Part shown: positions 45,840 through 53,907 of the stretch, in pieces
How the letters are laid out: each line of letters begins with the position of its first letter
Position numbering within the stretch: the first letter of the stretch is position 1
NCBI GenBank assembly: GCA_028696075.1
Contig: JAQVHS010000005.1
Coordinates: 6,656 to 70,655, forward strand
Source: Candidatus Gastranaerophilales bacterium
GTDB taxonomy: Bacteria; Cyanobacteriota; Vampirovibrionia; Gastranaerophilales; JAILCC01
Length of the DNA: 64,000 nt
Direction of reading: 5' to 3'
Translations under genes and position numbers: made by a program
Notes under the pieces: model-generated
What the model was told of the DNA's origin: nothing
The model's database searches: none
The model's input: the letters and a program-made list of their open reading frames with translations, nothing else

Positions 45840-47505
45840 CGCTGCTGCCTGATATTTCTACATAAAATTTTACATTATTCGGGGAAAGTTCAAACAACCG
45901 TTGATTATTTTTAACAAGGTTTATTTGATTTTGACCTTTAATCAGATAGTCTTCTACATTGACTTTGGCTTTTTTGTTTGAAAATTCGTTAGCGGAAATT
46001 TTCAGTTCTTTGCCGTTAATTTCAAATAGGGTATCATGCGCTATAAATGAATATTCTACGATTAAATTCCCTTTCGGCTGCGGGTCATAAAAAGAAACCC
46101 CGCATACTGCATTTGATTTCAAATGACATACCAAAGGAAAAGTTCCTATGGCTATTCCCGTATAATAGTGTTTTAAAATATCATCGTATTTAAAACCGTG
46201 TTTTGCCATGTAACCTGCGCCGTATTGGCTCAACCCCACTCCATGCCCAAATCCGCCGCCAAAAGCCCTAATGTCCGTGATTTTGCCGGTATCATCGCTT
46301 TTAATATCAAAGAAAACATTTCCGCTTGGCAGCCATTTGTTATTATATTGAAAAATTTTTCTTATTGTAATTTCTTTTGCTATGTACCAAATTCCTTTTG
46401 TAGTTTCGATTTTAACGTACATTGCTTTGCCGCTTACGCCTCTTTTTAAAACAGAAATATCAAGAATTTCGCCAAAATCGGCTTCATTTTCAAGTTTTGG
46501 TTTAACAAAGCCCGATGAAGATTGTTGTTTTAACGTTTTCTTCAAAATATTTTCAAGTTCATCCTTTCCCCAGGTATAATCCCATCTGTAGAGCGGAGAA
46601 TCTATATCGTAAGTCTTTACTTTATTTTCCCAAAAGACCCTTGCAAGCGTCTCATCAGACAAATCATAATCACCTTTTGTGTCTTTTACCCCTTTTAAAT
46701 AAGAAATCGGGTCTGAGGGATATTTGATTTTTTTGCCGTTTGATGTTGAAAAAACATTTTCATAATTCTCCGTATGCCCGCCTGCTGTTGATGAATAAAG
46801 CGATAAAATTATATCTCCGTTATAAAGCGCAAACTGCCCTTTAGTTTCATCCACTGCCCTGTCTGATAATTCATCGTGGGTATTTTTGCCGAAATATACC
46901 TGCGAGCTTGTTGTATCACTTACATCATAATCACGGTTTTGGTCGGTATTTTCTCTGAAAACATAACCCCTTGCAGCAACTGCTTGTGCTTTTAGCGCTT
47001 CCAGCCCGAAATACACAGGCATTTCGTTAGGTACAACACCTTTTAAATATTCTTCGACATCAAGAATATTTATAAGTTTCAATTTATTTGTATTGTTTAT
47101 ACTCAGTTCCAAAAGTCCGGCATACAATGCAGGCTTGGATTTTTTACACAAACTCGCAACAGATAAAGGTTGCTTGGAATTAATAAAAACTTTGTTCGCT
47201 TTTAATACTTTATAAATTTTTCCCGCATTAGCAAACAAAATAAAATCATTGTCTACGGTAATATTAGTTGTTTTATCAGGTTCTGATTTAAAAAGAAAAT
47301 TCTGCCCGTCAAATACAAAATACTCCTCTGCCGAAGTTATAGCCAAGGAAGTATGGTCATATCTGCCGCTTTTGGTATCTGAAATTAAAACTCTTACCAG
47401 ATTTTTTTCCACATCTACAGCATAAATCGGCTGCAAATAAAATAATTGCAGACAAAAAATAATTATTAACCCAAACAAAATTTGCTTCAAAAAGCTGTTA
47501 AACAA
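45829..47505 (-). CDS. SpoIID/LytB-domain protein
   Basis: EEYLKGVVPNEMP, EALKAQAVAARGY and SSTAGGHTEN motifs of the SpoIID family. N-terminal TM/signal segment. Confidence 0.85.
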   Translation of the reverse strand: MFNSFLKQILFGLIIIFCLQLFYLQPIYAVDVEKNLVRVLISDTKSGRYDHTSLAITSAEEYFVFDGQNFLFKSEPDKTTNITVDNDFILFANAGKIYKVLKANKVFINSKQPLSVASLCKKSKPALYAGLLELSINNTNKLKLINILDVEEYLKGVVPNEMPVYFGLEALKAQAVAARGYVFRENTDQNRDYDVSDTTSSQVYFGKNTHDELSDRAVDETKGQFALYNGDIILSLYSSTAGGHTENYENVFSTSNGKKIKYPSDPISYLKGVKDTKGDYDLSDETLARVFWENKVKTYDIDSPLYRWDYTWGKDELENILKKTLKQQSSSGFVKPKLENEADFGEILDISVLKRGVSGKAMYVKIETTKGIWYIAKEITIRKIFQYNNKWLPSGNVFFDIKSDDTGKITDIRAFGGGFGHGVGLSQYGAGYMAKHGFKYDDILKHYYTGIAIGTFPLVCHLKSNAVCGVSFYDPQPKGNLIVEYSFIAHDTLFEINGKELKISANEFSNKKAKVNVEDYLIKGQNQINLVKNNQRLFELSPNNVKFYVEISGSSDEK

Positions 47506-47719
47506 TTTTAAAACCTAAAAGAAATGATACCACAGTAAAAATTACAGCAACTATTGTCGTCAATTTATTAAGCCCTGCTTCTGCACCTTTTTGACTTGAA
47601 AATAATTGCGCAGCTCCGCCAAGCATGCTCATTCCGTCGCCTTTGGGGGAGTGAAGTAATATTAAAAATATTACAAGTACTCCTGATAGGACTTGAACTA
47701 TTTGTAATGCATTAACCAT
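47498..47719 (-). CDS. secG: preprotein translocase subunit SecG
   Basis: 73 aa, two TM with a central LLHSPKGDG..GGA motif. Confidence 0.85.
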   Translation of the reverse strand: MVNALQIVQVLSGVLVIFLILLHSPKGDGMSMLGGAAQLFSSQKGAEAGLNKLTTIVAVIFTVVSFLLGFKIV

Positions 47720-47875
47720 CTTTTTCTCCTTGAAATATTTTTAATAATACCACAAATAAAAAACAAATTTTAAAAATTGTAAATTATTATTACATAACCT
47801 CAAAACATGTAGCAACTTTATCTTTTCACCAATTTATAATAAACGTAAGCATCTTGAGGTTAAGGTTTTAGTTAA

Positions 47876-48970
47876 ATGGTATCAGCTGTAAATCTTCCGT
47901 TAACAACGAATAAGCCGACCACACCGGCAGGATATCAAATGGAGTCTGTACAAGGCTCCAGATACCAGATGGCGCCTTCTGAAAAGGGCGCTTTTGACGC
48001 GACTACAGCTCATAATATGAAAGACACCATGCTTTCTAACGGTATTATCACCAAATTTAAGGTAGGGATAGAGCAAGGTGCTAAAACCCCTGAATATATG
48101 TATAGAGGGCTTAAAGGCGATCCTGATTTTAATTTCTTTGAATTTCTGAAAGTTTGTAAATTTCCCTATCTTATAGGTGGACCTGTTTTGGCATTAGTTT
48201 ATCTTGCCGGCAGAAATACCGCTACCAATGCTTTAAAAAATTCTAATACTAACCTGTTTAAAAAGATGGCTTTGGGTGTTGCCCTTTACTATGCAGGCGT
48301 TGAGCTTGCAAAAATGGCTATAAATACACCCGTTAAATTAATGAGAGGGATTGACCTAAACCACCCATACAAAGATGTTGTTGACTTAAGAGAGGGTACA
48401 CCGCTTGAACTTCCTGCCAATAAAAAGAAAGAATACCATAAGGTTTTTGAGAGCTGTGAGTTTACAAGATGGGATTTAATGTACAATTCCAAAGGCAAAA
48501 ATAATAAAGACATTAATGAAAACTACAACCGCCTGGCGCGCAGATTTGGAATGAAAGGACCGATTGCAGACAGTGATTCTGCGGTTCAGGACAAAGTCAA
48601 AAAACTGATTATTATGTCAACGGCATGGAAAACCATGCTTATGATTCCGTTTGTTACCCTGGGTATTGGCTTGGCTCAGCAAGACAGCATTAATAACATA
48701 AGCTTTAGAAACATTATCAATAATACAAAAAATTTATTTACTAAAAATCCTAATAAATTTTTAACCTTTAAAGTTTCCATGCAAGAGGTCGGCAAAAATA
48801 TTAAAAACGGTTTTATTGAATTATGGAAAGGCAATAACAAATTTTCGGGCGCTTTAGGCAAAGCTGTTATTTTATCAAGTATTATTTTACCTGTTTTAGC
48901 TAATACTCTGATTTTCCATAAGACTTCTTTAAGCGGTGAAAACACTCCTTCTAAATCAAGGAGGGCATAA
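47876..48970 (+). CDS. hypothetical membrane protein, N-terminal module paralogous to the next gene
   Basis: TM pair plus the segment PVKLMRGIDL..F.RWDLM..RFGM..VQDKVKK aligns with PIKLTKGVDL..Y.CWDLI..KLGV..IRDKYKQ of the 982-aa protein. Confidence 0.55.
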   Translation: MVSAVNLPLTTNKPTTPAGYQMESVQGSRYQMAPSEKGAFDATTAHNMKDTMLSNGIITKFKVGIEQGAKTPEYMYRGLKGDPDFNFFEFLKVCKFPYLIGGPVLALVYLAGRNTATNALKNSNTNLFKKMALGVALYYAGVELAKMAINTPVKLMRGIDLNHPYKDVVDLREGTPLELPANKKKEYHKVFESCEFTRWDLMYNSKGKNNKDINENYNRLARRFGMKGPIADSDSAVQDKVKKLIIMSTAWKTMLMIPFVTLGIGLAQQDSINNISFRNIINNTKNLFTKNPNKFLTFKVSMQEVGKNIKNGFIELWKGNNKFSGALGKAVILSSIILPVLANTLIFHKTSLSGENTPSKSRRA

Positions 48971-48972
48971 TA

Positions 48973-51921
48973 ATGACTTCAATGCTTACGAATTATGCCA
49001 ACCTGCTGCAAGTAAAAAACAATACTCAAGCACCTCAACAAAAAGGTGTAATCCCTGCTGTCATTAATCAGGAAAGTTTAAAAACAGGCGTAGCTGCTTA
49101 TGCCCCCAAAGGACATTTGGTAAAAGACTCTTTCTTAAAATCTCTTGCCACTCCTTTTGTTCAGGATTATCAAAATATTAAAAATTTCTTCAAAGCAATA
49201 AACGGCAAAGGAACAGATTATTCAATCGGCAGAATTAACGACACCGCAATCAAGCTCGGCAGTTTAGGCATCGCTGCAATACTAGCTTCTTCCAAAGGTT
49301 CTCCTCTCAGAAAAGGTATGGAGTTCATAGGTCTGGGATGTTGGTTTGGAGCTATGTCGCTTTGGCCAAAACTGGCTGTTTACGCTCCTATCAAACTAAC
49401 CAAAGGGGTTGACCTGGAATTAAAATACGTTGACAGCTACGGCAGAAAAAAACTCTTCTCTCAAGACCCTCAATATATTTGCTGGGATTTAATTTCTGAT
49501 AAAGAACTTAATAGAATAGGCGATAAACTGGGTGTTCCTCGAAATATTGATGACAGAAAAGGTGCGATTAGGGATAAATATAAACAAATATCTGTTCAAG
49601 GCAATACTATTGCTATGATGACGGCAGGGTTCGCTACTCCTCTTGTTGCAAGTTTAGCCGCTGACCAAATAGGCAAACACGTCTACAGCCCTTTGTTAGG
49701 CAAAATCCAAAACGCTTCTGCGGCAAAAGCCTTAGCCAAGCTAGACGGACACATAGACAAAATTCATACAAATCAAACCCTTGAAACACAAATTGAAAAC
49801 ATGCTAAAAGGGTCTTCTTTGGATGAAAAGCTTAAATCATCGGTTAAAGCTTTATTTAAAGCTGAAGCAGTGGGAACAGAAACTCAGGAAACCGTTGCAC
49901 TTACCGTAGATAAAATATTTAAGTCTTTGTCGGGCAAAGAAGCTGTTACGGTTGTTGATGACAATTTAGCTCAAGAAATTATCAAAACTATTCAAGGCTC
50001 ACAAAAACGAGCCATTGACCCTAGAGTGCAAACAATTTTAGATAAACTTCCAAACAGTATCAAGGGTAAAACTTTAAACCGTATGGAAGTCGATACTTAT
50101 ATAGCGCAAGTTAAAAATACCTTGATAAAAAACCGTGTTTTAACAGATAACAGAAGAATAAATCAGGCGGTCGAAAATTTGAACAACTTATTCAAATCAA
50201 AAGCAACGGTTCAAATGGCAAATCCACAGGCAGCTGTTGATAAGTTAAAAGATGTTGCCCGTATGATTCAAACTTATAAAGTTTCTGTTAACCAAAGTAT
50301 GGATAAGGTTCTAAAAGCAACTGTTTTGGGTGATTCTTCCAATATTGCCAAACTTTGGGAAAGTACTTTTAAAAAGGTTATCCAAGCCTTTGATATCAAA
50401 GGCGCAGCTCTGAAGGAACTTGCCGCTACACCTTCCATAGAAAGAAGAAATGAAATTTTAGAAAAAGCTCTCAGAGGTATCGTTAGTCCTGACGGCAAAT
50501 TTGAACAAACTGTTAAATCTTTGCAAGTTATTGCAGACAACGCAATTGAAACTAACAAAAAGGCGCTTGAAACTTCTTTAAAATATCTTGATAATATGGA
50601 AGAAATGTTTGCTAAAAATTTCCCTGCAGGGGAATTAAAGGAACTGCACAACCAGTTTGCAATAATGATTTCACAAAGAAGACAAAATCTTATCGCAAAA
50701 TATGTCAGCACTAATAACACCTTCCAGGCTCCTTTAAGAATGCTTAGTGTTTTTGATAACCTCAAGGCCGACCTTGGTACGGCATCGGATTACATGGCAA
50801 AGCTTACCCGCGATTACGGCTTTGATACTAAAACAATCAAATCCTTGTTTGATTCTGATGATGCCGGCGTGAGAAGTATTCTAAAGAACGTTAACCTTAA
50901 TTTTGGCGAGGATAAAATTAAAGATATAATTGCATCGTTAAATTCCAACGAAGCTAAGATTGCAAAACAGTCTAATATCATTAAAAATATGTTATTTGAT
51001 TCTCTTAACGTAGATAATTTTATAAACAAATTCGACAAGTACAAATTACAGATGAATAACCAAAAGGCTTATGATTTTTGTTTAGATACCGTGTTAGGTC
51101 CTTTGGGTAATCGTGTAAAAGGGGCAATGTCAAATTCAGCGCATAATACTGCTGATGTTATAGACCAAAATAATCGTATTTTCAGAGTTCTGTTTACTGA
51201 TTTATGTGATGATGTAAATATGCGGTTTGGCAAAAGACCATCGCTGGTACAAACGGTTGAAACCCTCAAAGGCTCCGTCATAGGTAACTATATGGACGAC
51301 TTCTTTAATATTGGCAAAAACGGTGAATCTACAGAATATGCCAAAGCTGTTTTATCCAAATTTATTCCTTCTGAAGGCAATGGTCTTGATGCTATACAAA
51401 AATTCAACTATAAACTGCCTATTGCCGCTCAAAAAGGTGTGGAGTTAAGTCAGGTTCCATACATTAATTTAAAAGAATTCTATAGTATTGCGGATAAAAG
51501 TGCATATGATCGTTTAACCCATATAAAACACTCCGGCAATAAGAATTTATCTTTAATTAACGAGTTTTACGAACAATTGAATAGTTATGCCAAAAACGGT
51601 AAGGCAAAAATCAGAACATTTTTTACTTTATTTAATGAGAAGGACTTAACTCTGGGTGCAGATAACAGTGCAATCAGAAAATTGTTCTATAATTCTAATC
51701 TTGGTTATGCAAAACCCGGCAAGTTAACCGATGTAGGAGGTAAAGTGTTCGGTGATTTCTTACAAGAATCTGCGCAGCAGGTACTATCTTACAAGTCATG
51801 GTTCACAAGAGTAGGCATAGCTTTAGGTGTCCTCGCAGGGGTTACGGCTGTGGCGGTAGCAATGGTAGGCAGAAAAAATGCATTTAATCCTGATGTTTAT
51901 GAAAAAAAGAAAGGGGCGTAA
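48973..51921 (+). CDS. large (982 aa) helical membrane protein, unknown function
   Basis: Hydrophobic hairpin near residues 95-140 and a C-terminal TM (VGIALGVLAGVTAVAVAMVG). 2-nt gap from the upstream gene. No family recognised. Confidence 0.6.
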   Translation: MTSMLTNYANLLQVKNNTQAPQQKGVIPAVINQESLKTGVAAYAPKGHLVKDSFLKSLATPFVQDYQNIKNFFKAINGKGTDYSIGRINDTAIKLGSLGIAAILASSKGSPLRKGMEFIGLGCWFGAMSLWPKLAVYAPIKLTKGVDLELKYVDSYGRKKLFSQDPQYICWDLISDKELNRIGDKLGVPRNIDDRKGAIRDKYKQISVQGNTIAMMTAGFATPLVASLAADQIGKHVYSPLLGKIQNASAAKALAKLDGHIDKIHTNQTLETQIENMLKGSSLDEKLKSSVKALFKAEAVGTETQETVALTVDKIFKSLSGKEAVTVVDDNLAQEIIKTIQGSQKRAIDPRVQTILDKLPNSIKGKTLNRMEVDTYIAQVKNTLIKNRVLTDNRRINQAVENLNNLFKSKATVQMANPQAAVDKLKDVARMIQTYKVSVNQSMDKVLKATVLGDSSNIAKLWESTFKKVIQAFDIKGAALKELAATPSIERRNEILEKALRGIVSPDGKFEQTVKSLQVIADNAIETNKKALETSLKYLDNMEEMFAKNFPAGELKELHNQFAIMISQRRQNLIAKYVSTNNTFQAPLRMLSVFDNLKADLGTASDYMAKLTRDYGFDTKTIKSLFDSDDAGVRSILKNVNLNFGEDKIKDIIASLNSNEAKIAKQSNIIKNMLFDSLNVDNFINKFDKYKLQMNNQKAYDFCLDTVLGPLGNRVKGAMSNSAHNTADVIDQNNRIFRVLFTDLCDDVNMRFGKRPSLVQTVETLKGSVIGNYMDDFFNIGKNGESTEYAKAVLSKFIPSEGNGLDAIQKFNYKLPIAAQKGVELSQVPYINLKEFYSIADKSAYDRLTHIKHSGNKNLSLINEFYEQLNSYAKNGKAKIRTFFTLFNEKDLTLGADNSAIRKLFYNSNLGYAKPGKLTDVGGKVFGDFLQESAQQVLSYKSWFTRVGIALGVLAGVTAVAVAMVGRKNAFNPDVYEKKKGA

Positions 51922-51925
51922 TTAA

Positions 51926-53665
51926 ATGATAGTTAATTCCTCCTCTAATAAATATTCTTTCAAGGGCAGTGATTTTATCGCAAATTATGCGCAAAATTTT
52001 ATCACTAAACCAATCCCTGAAGTAAAACAGGAACAAGCACCCGCAGCAAATACCGCTTTGACGGGTAATGACTTTATTGCAAATTATGCACAGGTTTTAG
52101 TAAACAGGACAAAGCCTGCGGTAAAAACTGAACAAGCTCAAACACCACAAATTGCGTGGAAGAATGATTTGCGCTCTATGTTTGAAAATAATAAAGTAGT
52201 TATGCATGCCTTAATTCCAAGAACCTTCAATGCCAAAGACAAAGACGGCAACCACCTTATAGAAGACGGCGAAGAGCAGGGAACTTTTTACAATGCGGTT
52301 GAAAGGCTTGATGAATTAAAAAAATACGGCGTAAATACTCTTCACCTTCTGCCTATTAATCCTCCCGGAACAACAGGAGCGTTTGGTACCGCCGGCAGTC
52401 TTTATGCACCAAAAGATTATCTTCAGATTGATGAAACCCTGGGCGGCAAAGAAGGGTTTAAATACTTCGTAGATGAATGTCATAAAAAAGGTATAAGAGT
52501 TATGGTAGACTTGCCAAGCTGTGCTTCTTTAGACTTGTTTAACGCAAGACCCGATTTGATGGCTGTAGATGAGCGCGGATACGCAGAAACACCGCAAGGA
52601 TGGCAAGATATCAGAATGTTTGACCCTTATACGGACAAAGATAAGAAAATTTTAAATAAAGCTTTGGTGGATTATCATAAACAATTTGTAGATATGCTGC
52701 TTGAATGTGGCGCTGACGGTATCAGAGCAGACGTTGCAAGAGCGAAACCCGCAGAGTTTTGGGATGAGATAATTTCTTACACAAGAAGCAAAAATCCTGA
52801 ATTTGCATTCCTGGCAGAAACTTATACCTATGAAGACGCTTCGCCGATGTTAAACATGCCCCATGACAGACCTGAAGAGCTTCTGGCTGTGGGTTTTGAT
52901 TCATATTACGGACAATATCACATCTTCCCGTTACGCCAAAAAGCGAGTTACCTTCACGATTATGTTGTAGAAAACCTTGATATGAGCCACAGATTGCCAA
53001 AAGGGAAGTCGTTAATAGGTTCATTTGCCACTCACGATGACAAAAGCCCTATATCAAACGGCGGAGTGCCTTATTGTAATCTGACAACAGGTTTACAGTT
53101 TACTTTGCCCATGACTAATCCTTATTTTGTTACAGGCTTTGAATCCGGTGATACATACATTTATCCTTACAAAGATAAACCCGCTCAAAAAAGCGCCACT
53201 GATTCTTTCCAATATATTGTCCACTCTCAAATGGTAGATATATTTAACCTTTCAAGAAAACCCGGCGGCGAACACCCTGAAATAGGTGATTTTATGGGCA
53301 GAATGGCTCAAATAAGAAAAGACCACGAAGATTTAATAGCTAAAGGTTCTTACATTCCTTTCAAAGATACCCAAAATAAAAATGATAAAATTATTGCTTA
53401 TGCAAGACATAAAGACGGTAAAACCCTTTTGACAATTGCAAACAGAGATGTTAATGCAGTGCAAAAAGGTAAAATTACCATCCCCGGACTAAAAGCTTCA
53501 CAACCTTTGGTAGATTTAACCCTTCCATACGGGCAGCCAAGCAGATACACGGCGCTAAATAATACCGTTGAAGTTGAATTAGGACCGGCAAGAGTTCATG
53601 TGTTTGAAATAGATACTCCTGATATAGAAAAAAAAGCAAAAGAAGTTTACAAGCAAAATATTTAA
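51926..53665 (+). CDS. GH13 alpha-amylase-family glycoside hydrolase with duplicated N-terminal peptide motif
   Basis: GH13 regions GIRADVARA (nucleophile Asp), FLAETY (acid/base Glu) and FATHDD. The N-terminus carries two copies of DFIANYAQ-x(15)-EQA. Confidence 0.8.
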   Translation: MIVNSSSNKYSFKGSDFIANYAQNFITKPIPEVKQEQAPAANTALTGNDFIANYAQVLVNRTKPAVKTEQAQTPQIAWKNDLRSMFENNKVVMHALIPRTFNAKDKDGNHLIEDGEEQGTFYNAVERLDELKKYGVNTLHLLPINPPGTTGAFGTAGSLYAPKDYLQIDETLGGKEGFKYFVDECHKKGIRVMVDLPSCASLDLFNARPDLMAVDERGYAETPQGWQDIRMFDPYTDKDKKILNKALVDYHKQFVDMLLECGADGIRADVARAKPAEFWDEIISYTRSKNPEFAFLAETYTYEDASPMLNMPHDRPEELLAVGFDSYYGQYHIFPLRQKASYLHDYVVENLDMSHRLPKGKSLIGSFATHDDKSPISNGGVPYCNLTTGLQFTLPMTNPYFVTGFESGDTYIYPYKDKPAQKSATDSFQYIVHSQMVDIFNLSRKPGGEHPEIGDFMGRMAQIRKDHEDLIAKGSYIPFKDTQNKNDKIIAYARHKDGKTLLTIANRDVNAVQKGKITIPGLKASQPLVDLTLPYGQPSRYTALNNTVEVELGPARVHVFEIDTPDIEKKAKEVYKQNI

Positions 53666-53907
53666 AAACGAAGTTGCAGTGGTGCAGGCGCAAGGGGCTA
53701 CAGGTGTAGGTGGTGCAGGGGCGGCGCGGCGGTGGTGCAGAAGCGCAGGCAATACCTGGCTTAAACTGATTTTCGGTTCCTCACTGCGCCCGTTACGGCA
53801 CAGTAACAAAAACATTAAGAAATGTTACAATTTTTCTGTTTGTTGAAATATCAGATAATGTATAACTTTTATATATAATATGTACGGGTAAAATAAGGAG
53901 TAGCAGC

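Follow-up and report, generated by a model that had tools for sequence, protein, structure and literature searches.

What joins a glycoside hydrolase family 13 (GH13) enzyme to two putative membrane proteins that are encoded directly upstream of it and belong to no described family? This question is raised by a three-gene locus in a 64,000-nucleotide (nt) stretch of DNA ("the window") from contig JAQVHS010000005.1 of a Candidatus Gastranaerophilales bacterium, whose assembled genome (G000; 1.84 Mb, 99.6% complete) belongs to the Vampirovibrionia. Among non-photosynthetic bacteria, the Vampirovibrionia (Melainabacteria) are those most closely related to the cyanobacteria; they are common in human and animal guts and, to our knowledge, have hardly been studied experimentally. 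On the plus strand of the window, an open reading frame (ORF) of 364 amino acids (aa) (gene A, positions 47876–48970) is followed by one of 982 aa (gene B, 48973–51921) and one of 579 aa (gene C, 51926–53665), the last of which encodes a GH13 enzyme with no signal peptide. The gaps between them are 2 nt (A–B) and 4 nt (B–C), as a preliminary description of this DNA had reported for three tightly packed genes. We consider it rather probable that A, B, and C constitute a single module, in which a competent GH13 α-glucan enzyme is bound to a heteromeric, probably membrane-embedded pair of the paralogous proteins A and B.

The gene order proved to be conserved at every locus examined. The 196 homologs of A were all unnamed proteins and, where labelled, were assigned to Melainabacteria, Gastranaerophilales, or "Cyanobacteria bacterium"; a profile built from 31 A sequences retrieved only 222 clusters when 1.84 billion representatives were searched. 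When 301 genomes of the phylum were sampled, one family of the same order had A in 120 of its 123 sampled genomes, and the 177 other genomes all lacked it; in a 151-genome sample of the class, A occurred in four further families and was absent from six. B was detected in 31 of 41 genomes of the order. At all 29 Gastranaerophilales loci, one of which was cut at a contig end, A, B, and C were adjacent and in the same order, touching or overlapping, and this order recurred elsewhere in the class, at 14 loci of other families (43/43 loci across the Vampirovibrionia). Meanwhile, the genes flanking A-B-C differed between related loci. The C-type GH13 was found in 56 of the 151 class genomes and A in 54, in the same families, and five B-negative genomes of the order (92%–99% complete) all lacked A and C as well. 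Among the genomes searched, none kept A and B without a C-type GH13, or the reverse. These observations of synteny, joint presence, and joint absence in relatives bear out the earlier view of the three genes as one operon, and they support the proposition that A-B-C is a lineage-restricted operon with conserved synteny, near-universal in the Gastranaerophilales and retained or lost as a whole.

A fourth gene shows nearly the same distribution. The source genome carries two further GH13-like genes besides C, both of which lack a hydrophobic N-terminal segment when inspected by eye. One of them, gene D, lies outside the window (contig C12:65709–69638) and encodes a 1310-aa GH13-like protein with no signal peptide, with canonical regions II–IV by eye and a very large insertion. 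Homologs of D divergently adjoined A at 9 of the 14 distant loci and were found, at a stricter threshold, in 49 of the 151 class genomes. The distribution of D makes a role in the same pathway probable, even though the gene is unlinked to the operon in the source genome.

That B and C act as one physical unit is most strongly indicated by gene fusions. In at least seven genomes outside the order, B and C were encoded as a single ORF of 986–1125 aa, in which the B module came first, then a helical region of reduced length, then the last hydrophobic helix, and finally the GH13 domain, attached through 50–140 linker residues. The recurrence of this fusion strongly argues that the two proteins work as one unit, and because B and C are fused in one ORF in relatives, we infer that the separate proteins of the Gastranaerophilales probably form a physical complex. 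A tie between the glycosidase and its partner proteins had been proposed in the preliminary description from a shared N-terminal peptide; the tie is strongly supported by the fusions in relatives, not by the peptide. The fused proteins are also a ready natural construct for biochemical and structural work. Programmed frameshifting or read-through joining B to C in the split genomes is unlikely, because the relative frame of C varied among loci.

The conserved linkage and the fusions also bear on whether the GH13 gene is merely carried on the same transcript as two housekeeping envelope proteins unrelated to glucan metabolism. In the window the operon lies beside envelope genes (a secG-like ORF, spoIID, and murJ), and the sequences of A and B contain no sugar-binding pointer of any kind, both of which would fit such an explanation. 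However, the flanking genes are not conserved, the three genes are kept or lost together, B–C fusions have arisen repeatedly, and a second GH13 gene, D, is linked to the operon in distant lineages; we therefore regard a purely housekeeping role for A and B as very improbable.

The assignment of C to GH13 was clear. C matched PF00128 at 42 bits (cut-off, 22) and 84 GH13 chains in the PDB at E < 0.001, and its catalytic core and C domain occupy residues 79–579 (52160–53665, plus strand). The catalytic codons lie on the same strand at 52730–52732 (D269), 52817–52819 (E298), and 53036–53038 (D371). Among 40 orthologs, the nucleophile D269 and the acid/base E298 were conserved in all 40 and D371 in 39. 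The catalytic regions of the enzyme had been described as intact, which was true of the Asp-Glu-Asp triad but not of region I, where the His is replaced: the region reads VDLPSCAS in C, a non-canonical form in which Ser-Cys takes the place of Asn-His in 35–39 of the 40 orthologs. C lacks the region I His used by most GH13 enzymes, and its activity may be unusual.

The closest PDB relatives of the catalytic half of C were AmyB of Thermotoga neapolitana (4gkl; E 1e-18) and the α-amylase of Lactobacillus plantarum (3dhu; E 8e-16), which have a similarly short, three-domain GH13 architecture. The references of PMC11239784 cite AmyB as intracellular; C, for its part, has no signal peptide. According to PMC11239784, the GH13_48 subfamily is recognized by a Cys that is highly conserved in region II, where it immediately precedes the catalytic nucleophile. 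The equivalent residue of C, residue 268, was Ala (26), Val (10), or Ser (4) in the 40 orthologs and never Cys; because of this residue, C is not assigned to GH13_48, and on sequence grounds it is a divergent relative of that subfamily rather than a member. C differs from GH13_48 and AmyB not only in lacking the signature Cys and the region I His but also in its obligatory partners and in the roughly 80 aa that extend its N-terminus. The only PDB matches spanning both the catalytic and the C domains (C residues 118–518; E ~1e-8) were the T. maritima maltosyltransferase (1gju) and the maltosyltransferase GlgE (GH13_3; 3zss and 4u2y). These are transferases acting on α-1,4-glucan, and their similarity to C is low. 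GlgE, moreover, is a soluble protein that works without membrane partners. C could be either a hydrolase or a transferase, as its activity is not readable from the sequence.

A second C-like gene, encoding a protein of 511–515 aa with 36%–42% identity to C, was found elsewhere in the genome in most members of one family, here designated f3 (L054:4182–5729, L055:4033–5580, L056:3031–4566 on the minus strand, and L057:4181–5728). In this paralog, a classical Sec signal peptide immediately precedes the sequence WVNDLR, the point at which the catalytic core of C begins. The extension of C and the signal peptide are thus alternative N-termini of the same core. In one genome (G026) the secreted paralog is the only C-like copy, with A, B, C, and D all missing; the source genome has no secreted paralog.

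A and B are related to one another. BLASTP aligned the two proteins at E 6e-7, and comparison of the A family with the B family by hhalign gave a probability of 96.6% and an E-value of 6e-10 over 188 columns, matching residues 42–267 of A (47999–48676, plus strand) with residues 39–229 of B (49087–49659, plus strand). The module of about 230 aa that the preliminary description had seen in both proteins is therefore real, and the three pairs of motifs quoted from it (PVKLMRGIDL/PIKLTKGVDL, FTRWDLM/YICWDLI, and VQDKVK/IRDKYK) are all present and lie in conserved columns. In A, the shared region includes a pre-helix, helices 1 and 2, a β-hairpin domain, and helix 3, and the matching region of B contains invariant columns. 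By these alignments, A and B are true paralogs. They share a common plan of four long, weakly hydrophobic helices in which helices 2 and 3 are separated by a conserved β-hairpin domain (about 85 residues); in B, some 700 additional residues, all helical, are inserted between helix 3 and helix 4. The AlphaFold2 model of A was confident (predicted local distance difference test [pLDDT] 80; predicted template modelling score [pTM] 0.74), and that of B, which was mostly helix, was fair (pLDDT 72.7; pTM 0.60).

No described relative of either protein was found. Foldseek searches of these models against the PDB returned no fold match (best E 0.54 for A and 0.14 for B, with TM-scores ≤0.21), profile searches against PDB sequences matched no chain (best E 0.11 for A and 0.013 for B), and neither A nor B itself matched a Pfam or NCBIfam family. 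When 31 A and 23 B family members were searched against Pfam, only stray matches in one or two members were obtained (best E 0.0011), none of them family-wide. To judge from these sequence and model comparisons, neither A nor B can be assigned to a described family or fold, and they constitute two families with predicted folds that have no known relative. The earlier statement that these genes could not be placed in any described system thus held for A and B across Pfam, NCBIfam, PDB sequences, and Foldseek, with no confident homology to a known system.

Two further features of the architecture of these proteins were observed. The A-like proteins P0111 (631 aa) and P0182 (459 aa) have helical insertions of 100–270 residues between helices 3 and 4 and are intermediate between the A and B architectures; the loop between these helices appears to be an insertion hot spot. 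Within B, an internal segment at residues 573–590 (50689–50742), NLIAKYVSTNNTFQAP, resembles the N-terminus of B itself, MLTNYANLLQVKNNTQAP. Among the four other loci from the source genome's own family, here designated f1, this segment was conserved at L001, L002, and L016 but not at L017, and it may be either a chance resemblance or an internal repeat.

The helices of A and B are weakly hydrophobic and carry occasional charges. In a simple insertion-energy scan, the sums for the helices of A were 3.2–6.1 and those for two internal helices of B were 3.5 and 5.4, whereas the C-terminal helix of B (residues 947–965; 51811–51867, plus strand) had a sum of −0.37. This is the only helix of the two proteins that passed the scan, none in A having done so, and the sole strongly predicted membrane span. 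As a control, nine helices of MurJ fell below 3 in the same scan, against about 14 helices expected for MurJ, a number that was not counted here. Accordingly, of the transmembrane hairpin assigned to both proteins in the preliminary description, the helices are present, but their hydrophobicity is only weak and the internal ones fail the scan. In the fused relatives, the GH13 domain follows the last hydrophobic helix of B.

With regard to the location of the enzyme, the separate C protein has no hydrophobic N-terminal segment (no window fell below 7.5 in the hydrophobicity scan), and no twin-arginine (RR) motif was seen in the listed C extensions. Because the separate C has no signal peptide, we take the cytoplasmic face of the membrane as the most likely location of the enzyme and as our default. 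It is also conceivable, though unlikely, that the enzyme acts outside the cytoplasm, the last helix of B serving as an N-in/C-out anchor so that the GH13 domain of the fusions is periplasmic; in the split forms, the signal-less C would then reach the periplasm through or with A and B, and its extension would be an export or docking signal. The distribution of charge bears on this in both directions. The loop between helices 1 and 2 of A is rich in Lys and Arg (3.7 K+R in 16 residues), with an acidic flank before helix 1, and most fusion proteins have a strongly basic flank before the last helix; by the positive-inside rule, these two basic regions would place the GH13 domain outside the cytoplasm. 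In split B, however, it is the C-tail flank of the last helix that is more basic than the preceding flank (K+R 4.3 vs. 2.4). The charge bias of split B and that of the fusions, as read from their sequences, are therefore contradictory. An extracytoplasmic location would also be in keeping with the f3 paralog, in which a classical Sec signal peptide directly precedes the same core, and with the weak motif common to the N-termini of B and C that is described below. Against it stand the absence of any Sec-like or twin-arginine segment from the separate C, the absence of a signal peptide from the co-distributed D, and the need to export a folded 579-aa enzyme through two four-helix proteins, for which we know of no route.

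The N-terminal extension of C contains two copies of the peptide DFIANYAQ, as had been described, at residues 16–23 (51971–51994) and 49–56 (52070–52093) on the plus strand. The copies form a DNA repeat with a spacing of 99 nt, and the spacer that separates the motif from the following EQA is 12 residues long rather than the 15 reported. With a profile built from the orthologs, copy 2 scored 21.5 bits and ranked first among 1736 ORFs. At the four other f1 loci the motif is present as a single copy, DF[IV]xxYAQ, and in the f3 family LLNAYLNNLA stands at the equivalent place. In these two families, the motif is the sole conserved element of an otherwise variable extension, the rest of which varies in length (55–156 residues) and is rich in Q, P, N, A, and T. 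The N-terminus of B, MTSMLTNYANLLQ, was also present as described, but its spacer to QAP is five residues, not seven. It includes the peptide MLTNYANLLQ (residues 4–13; 48982–49011, plus strand), most Gastranaerophilales orthologs of B begin with M-x-x-[MN]-[LI]-[IL]-Q-[NS]-[YF]-[IA], and residues 2–18 were modelled as a helix by AlphaFold2 with low confidence.

The resemblance between the two N-termini was modestly above chance. When every source-genome ORF with 60 aa or more was considered, NYA[QN] occurred 17 times, five of them within the first 60 residues, and three of these five were in B and C. The profile of the C motif from orthologs ranked the N-terminus of B 14th among the 1736 ORFs, and the profile of B N-termini ranked C ninth. 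In an ungapped 10-mer comparison of B with C, the p-value was 0.01 for the window and below 0.05 at 11 of 28 loci, with a median of 0.115; the lineages are related, and the independence of the 28 loci is therefore overstated. We consider the resemblance of the C motif to the N-terminus of B suggestive but unproven. The preliminary description had seen in the NYA peptide a possible docking signal, and this is weakly borne out: the resemblance exceeds chance modestly and is confined to f1 and f3.

It is quite possible, though somewhat short of an even chance, that the likeness between B and C merely reflects a bias of composition or of amphipathic helices, that B and C make contact through other surfaces, and that the extension is only a linker. 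The profile of the C motif did not give significant results in the extensions of other families or in fusion linkers (3/27 at p < 0.05), the median p-value of the unbiased 10-mer comparison over the 28 loci was 0.115, and a loose regular expression of the motif also matched inside C and one to five times per B protein. Furthermore, proteins that by eye are RecN-like, alanine-racemase-like, and O-antigen-ligase-like scored equally high with the B profile. A bias of this kind is less easily reconciled with the 11 loci at p < 0.05 (of 28, vs. about 1.4 expected, though the lineages are related), with the placing of the partner gene in the top 1% by both reciprocal profile tests, with the status of the motif as the only conserved element of the variable extension in f1 and f3, or with its duplication in the source genome.

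Three broader patterns were considered and not retained. A genome-wide class of proteins with an NYA-like N-terminus was rejected, since the other high scorers were, by eye, RecN-like, RecO-like, alanine-racemase-like, and O-antigen-ligase-like proteins. A class-wide motif in C, including a "hydrophobic-L-x-K-Y" helix noticed by eye in fusion linkers, was not significant. A second N-terminal pattern, S-F-[KG]-G, in A, C, and other GH13 proteins was observed 41 times against 32 expected and was not supported.

On the reading that we favor, C would work while bound to a heteromeric A/B pair in the membrane, B ending in a membrane helix. We read the extension of C as a flexible tether that corresponds to the linker of the fusions: in the split genomes, this low-complexity segment of about 80 residues would replace the covalent B–C linker of the fused relatives. 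In the f1 and f3 families, the amphipathic helix within it (DF[IV]xxYAQ or LLNAYLNN) may dock on A/B and so provide a non-covalent docking element. At the cytoplasmic face, C would then cut or transfer α-1,4-glucan chains, presumably of glycogen or maltodextrin, together with D. If the module does organize the processing of glycogen or maltodextrin at the membrane, it would represent a new form of bacterial α-glucan handling and would give a function to two orphan families.

Several of the observations above weigh against this picture. The enzyme departs from most GH13 proteins at region I; neither a fold match nor sequence homology gives any pointer to the function of A and B; and the hydrophobic helices that would hold the pair in the membrane are marginal. 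The Sec signal peptide of the f3 paralog sits exactly at the position of the C extension, and the positive-inside rule, applied to the loop of A and to the fusions, points away from the cytoplasm. In addition, the motif assigned a docking role loses significance outside f1 and f3, and its loose form matches one to five times per B protein.

A bolder proposal is that A and B are a new membrane conduit for α-glucan, either coupling a GlgE-like transglycosylase C, with D, to glucan export or carrying the signal-less C across the membrane by means of its extension. We regard this as distinctly doubtful. If it were true, the module would be a route of polysaccharide or protein translocation without a described relative, and the export of either glucan or enzyme by the module would amount to a new translocation system.

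The module that we favor, in which C is bound to A and B, can be set beside known assemblies. In dockerin–cohesin systems such as the cellulosome and the amylosome of Ruminococcus bromii, a GH13 enzyme with a short terminal module on a flexible linker docks on a scaffold. The likeness of terminal module, flexible linker, and scaffold is in concept only: dockerin systems are extracellular, their enzymes carry signal peptides, and the dockerin is a folded Ca-binding domain of about 70 aa, whereas the candidate element here is a helix of at most about 12 residues and the scaffold an orphan pair. In synthase-dependent secretion, glycan-cutting enzymes (BcsZ, PslG, and PelA) are encoded with, and act beside, polymer-handling membrane proteins. 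The encoding of a glycosidase together with membrane proteins is common to both cases, but those systems center on a glycosyltransferase synthase, and there is none in the A-B-C module. No paper on the A-B-C module was found in the literature searched, and the three-gene module with its fusions is without a described counterpart.

Glycosyltransferase genes were nevertheless encountered. The source genome encodes, outside the window (contig C13:80135–83095), a GT5 glycogen-synthase-like protein of about 964 aa, whose N-terminus is of low complexity and whose catalytic domain is preceded by two hydrophobic helices. This membrane-anchored protein was considered as the missing synthase and was rejected as a core part, as it was found in only 6 of the 151 class genomes. 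Canonical GlgA was uninformative as a co-varying gene, being near-universal in the class (131/151). In two distant lineages, a glycosyltransferase-like gene encoding 711–753 aa stands beside A-B-C(-D). The first (L051:87–2222) has a GT1-type Pfam match and lies on the same strand directly upstream of A, and the second (L052:8214–10475, minus strand) has a GT5 match.

The 160 nt preceding A were compared among related loci, and a direct repeat, TGTAAA-N4-TGTAAA (with no more than one mismatch), was found 62–98 nt upstream of the A start codon at 18 of 25 loci, loci L020–L040 being among its carriers. The box was in gene orientation at 17 of the 18, each with a shuffle p-value ≤0.035; at L032, the best copy was on the opposite strand. 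Its reverse complement consists of two TTTACA repeats with the spacing found in HLR1, the element bound by RpaB, an OmpR-family regulator of cyanobacteria. The conserved upstream repeat is a candidate site for a regulator of the OmpR/RpaB type and offers an entry to the regulation of the module. It resembles HLR1 in arrangement; the copy in the window, TGTAAATTATTATTAC (47778–47793, plus strand; 98 nt upstream of the A start), is degenerate, with only the first half-site perfect. There was no exact HLR1 site upstream of A in the window.

In the window, C is followed on the 3′ side by a GC-rich spacer and then by two near-identical EF-hand genes. The spacer (53665–53805), which begins directly after the C stop codon, contains GGTGGTGCAGG-like repeats, and no terminator was called in it by a simple scan. 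The EF-hand pair had been grouped with the operon into a block of about 10 kb; we rejected it as part of the module, because the genes 3′ of C are unrelated in related contigs, which carry fmt, a β-lactamase-like gene, or others at this position. On the 5′ side, the neighbors are on the opposite strand and comprise a 73-aa SecG-like ORF, a gene with a SpoIID domain, and murJ. The 73-aa ORF (47498–47719, minus strand), which is below the length of the default ORF list, is SecG-like by eye, with two hydrophobic helices and a GG-rich loop, and it sits between spoIID and the operon, divergent from gene A.

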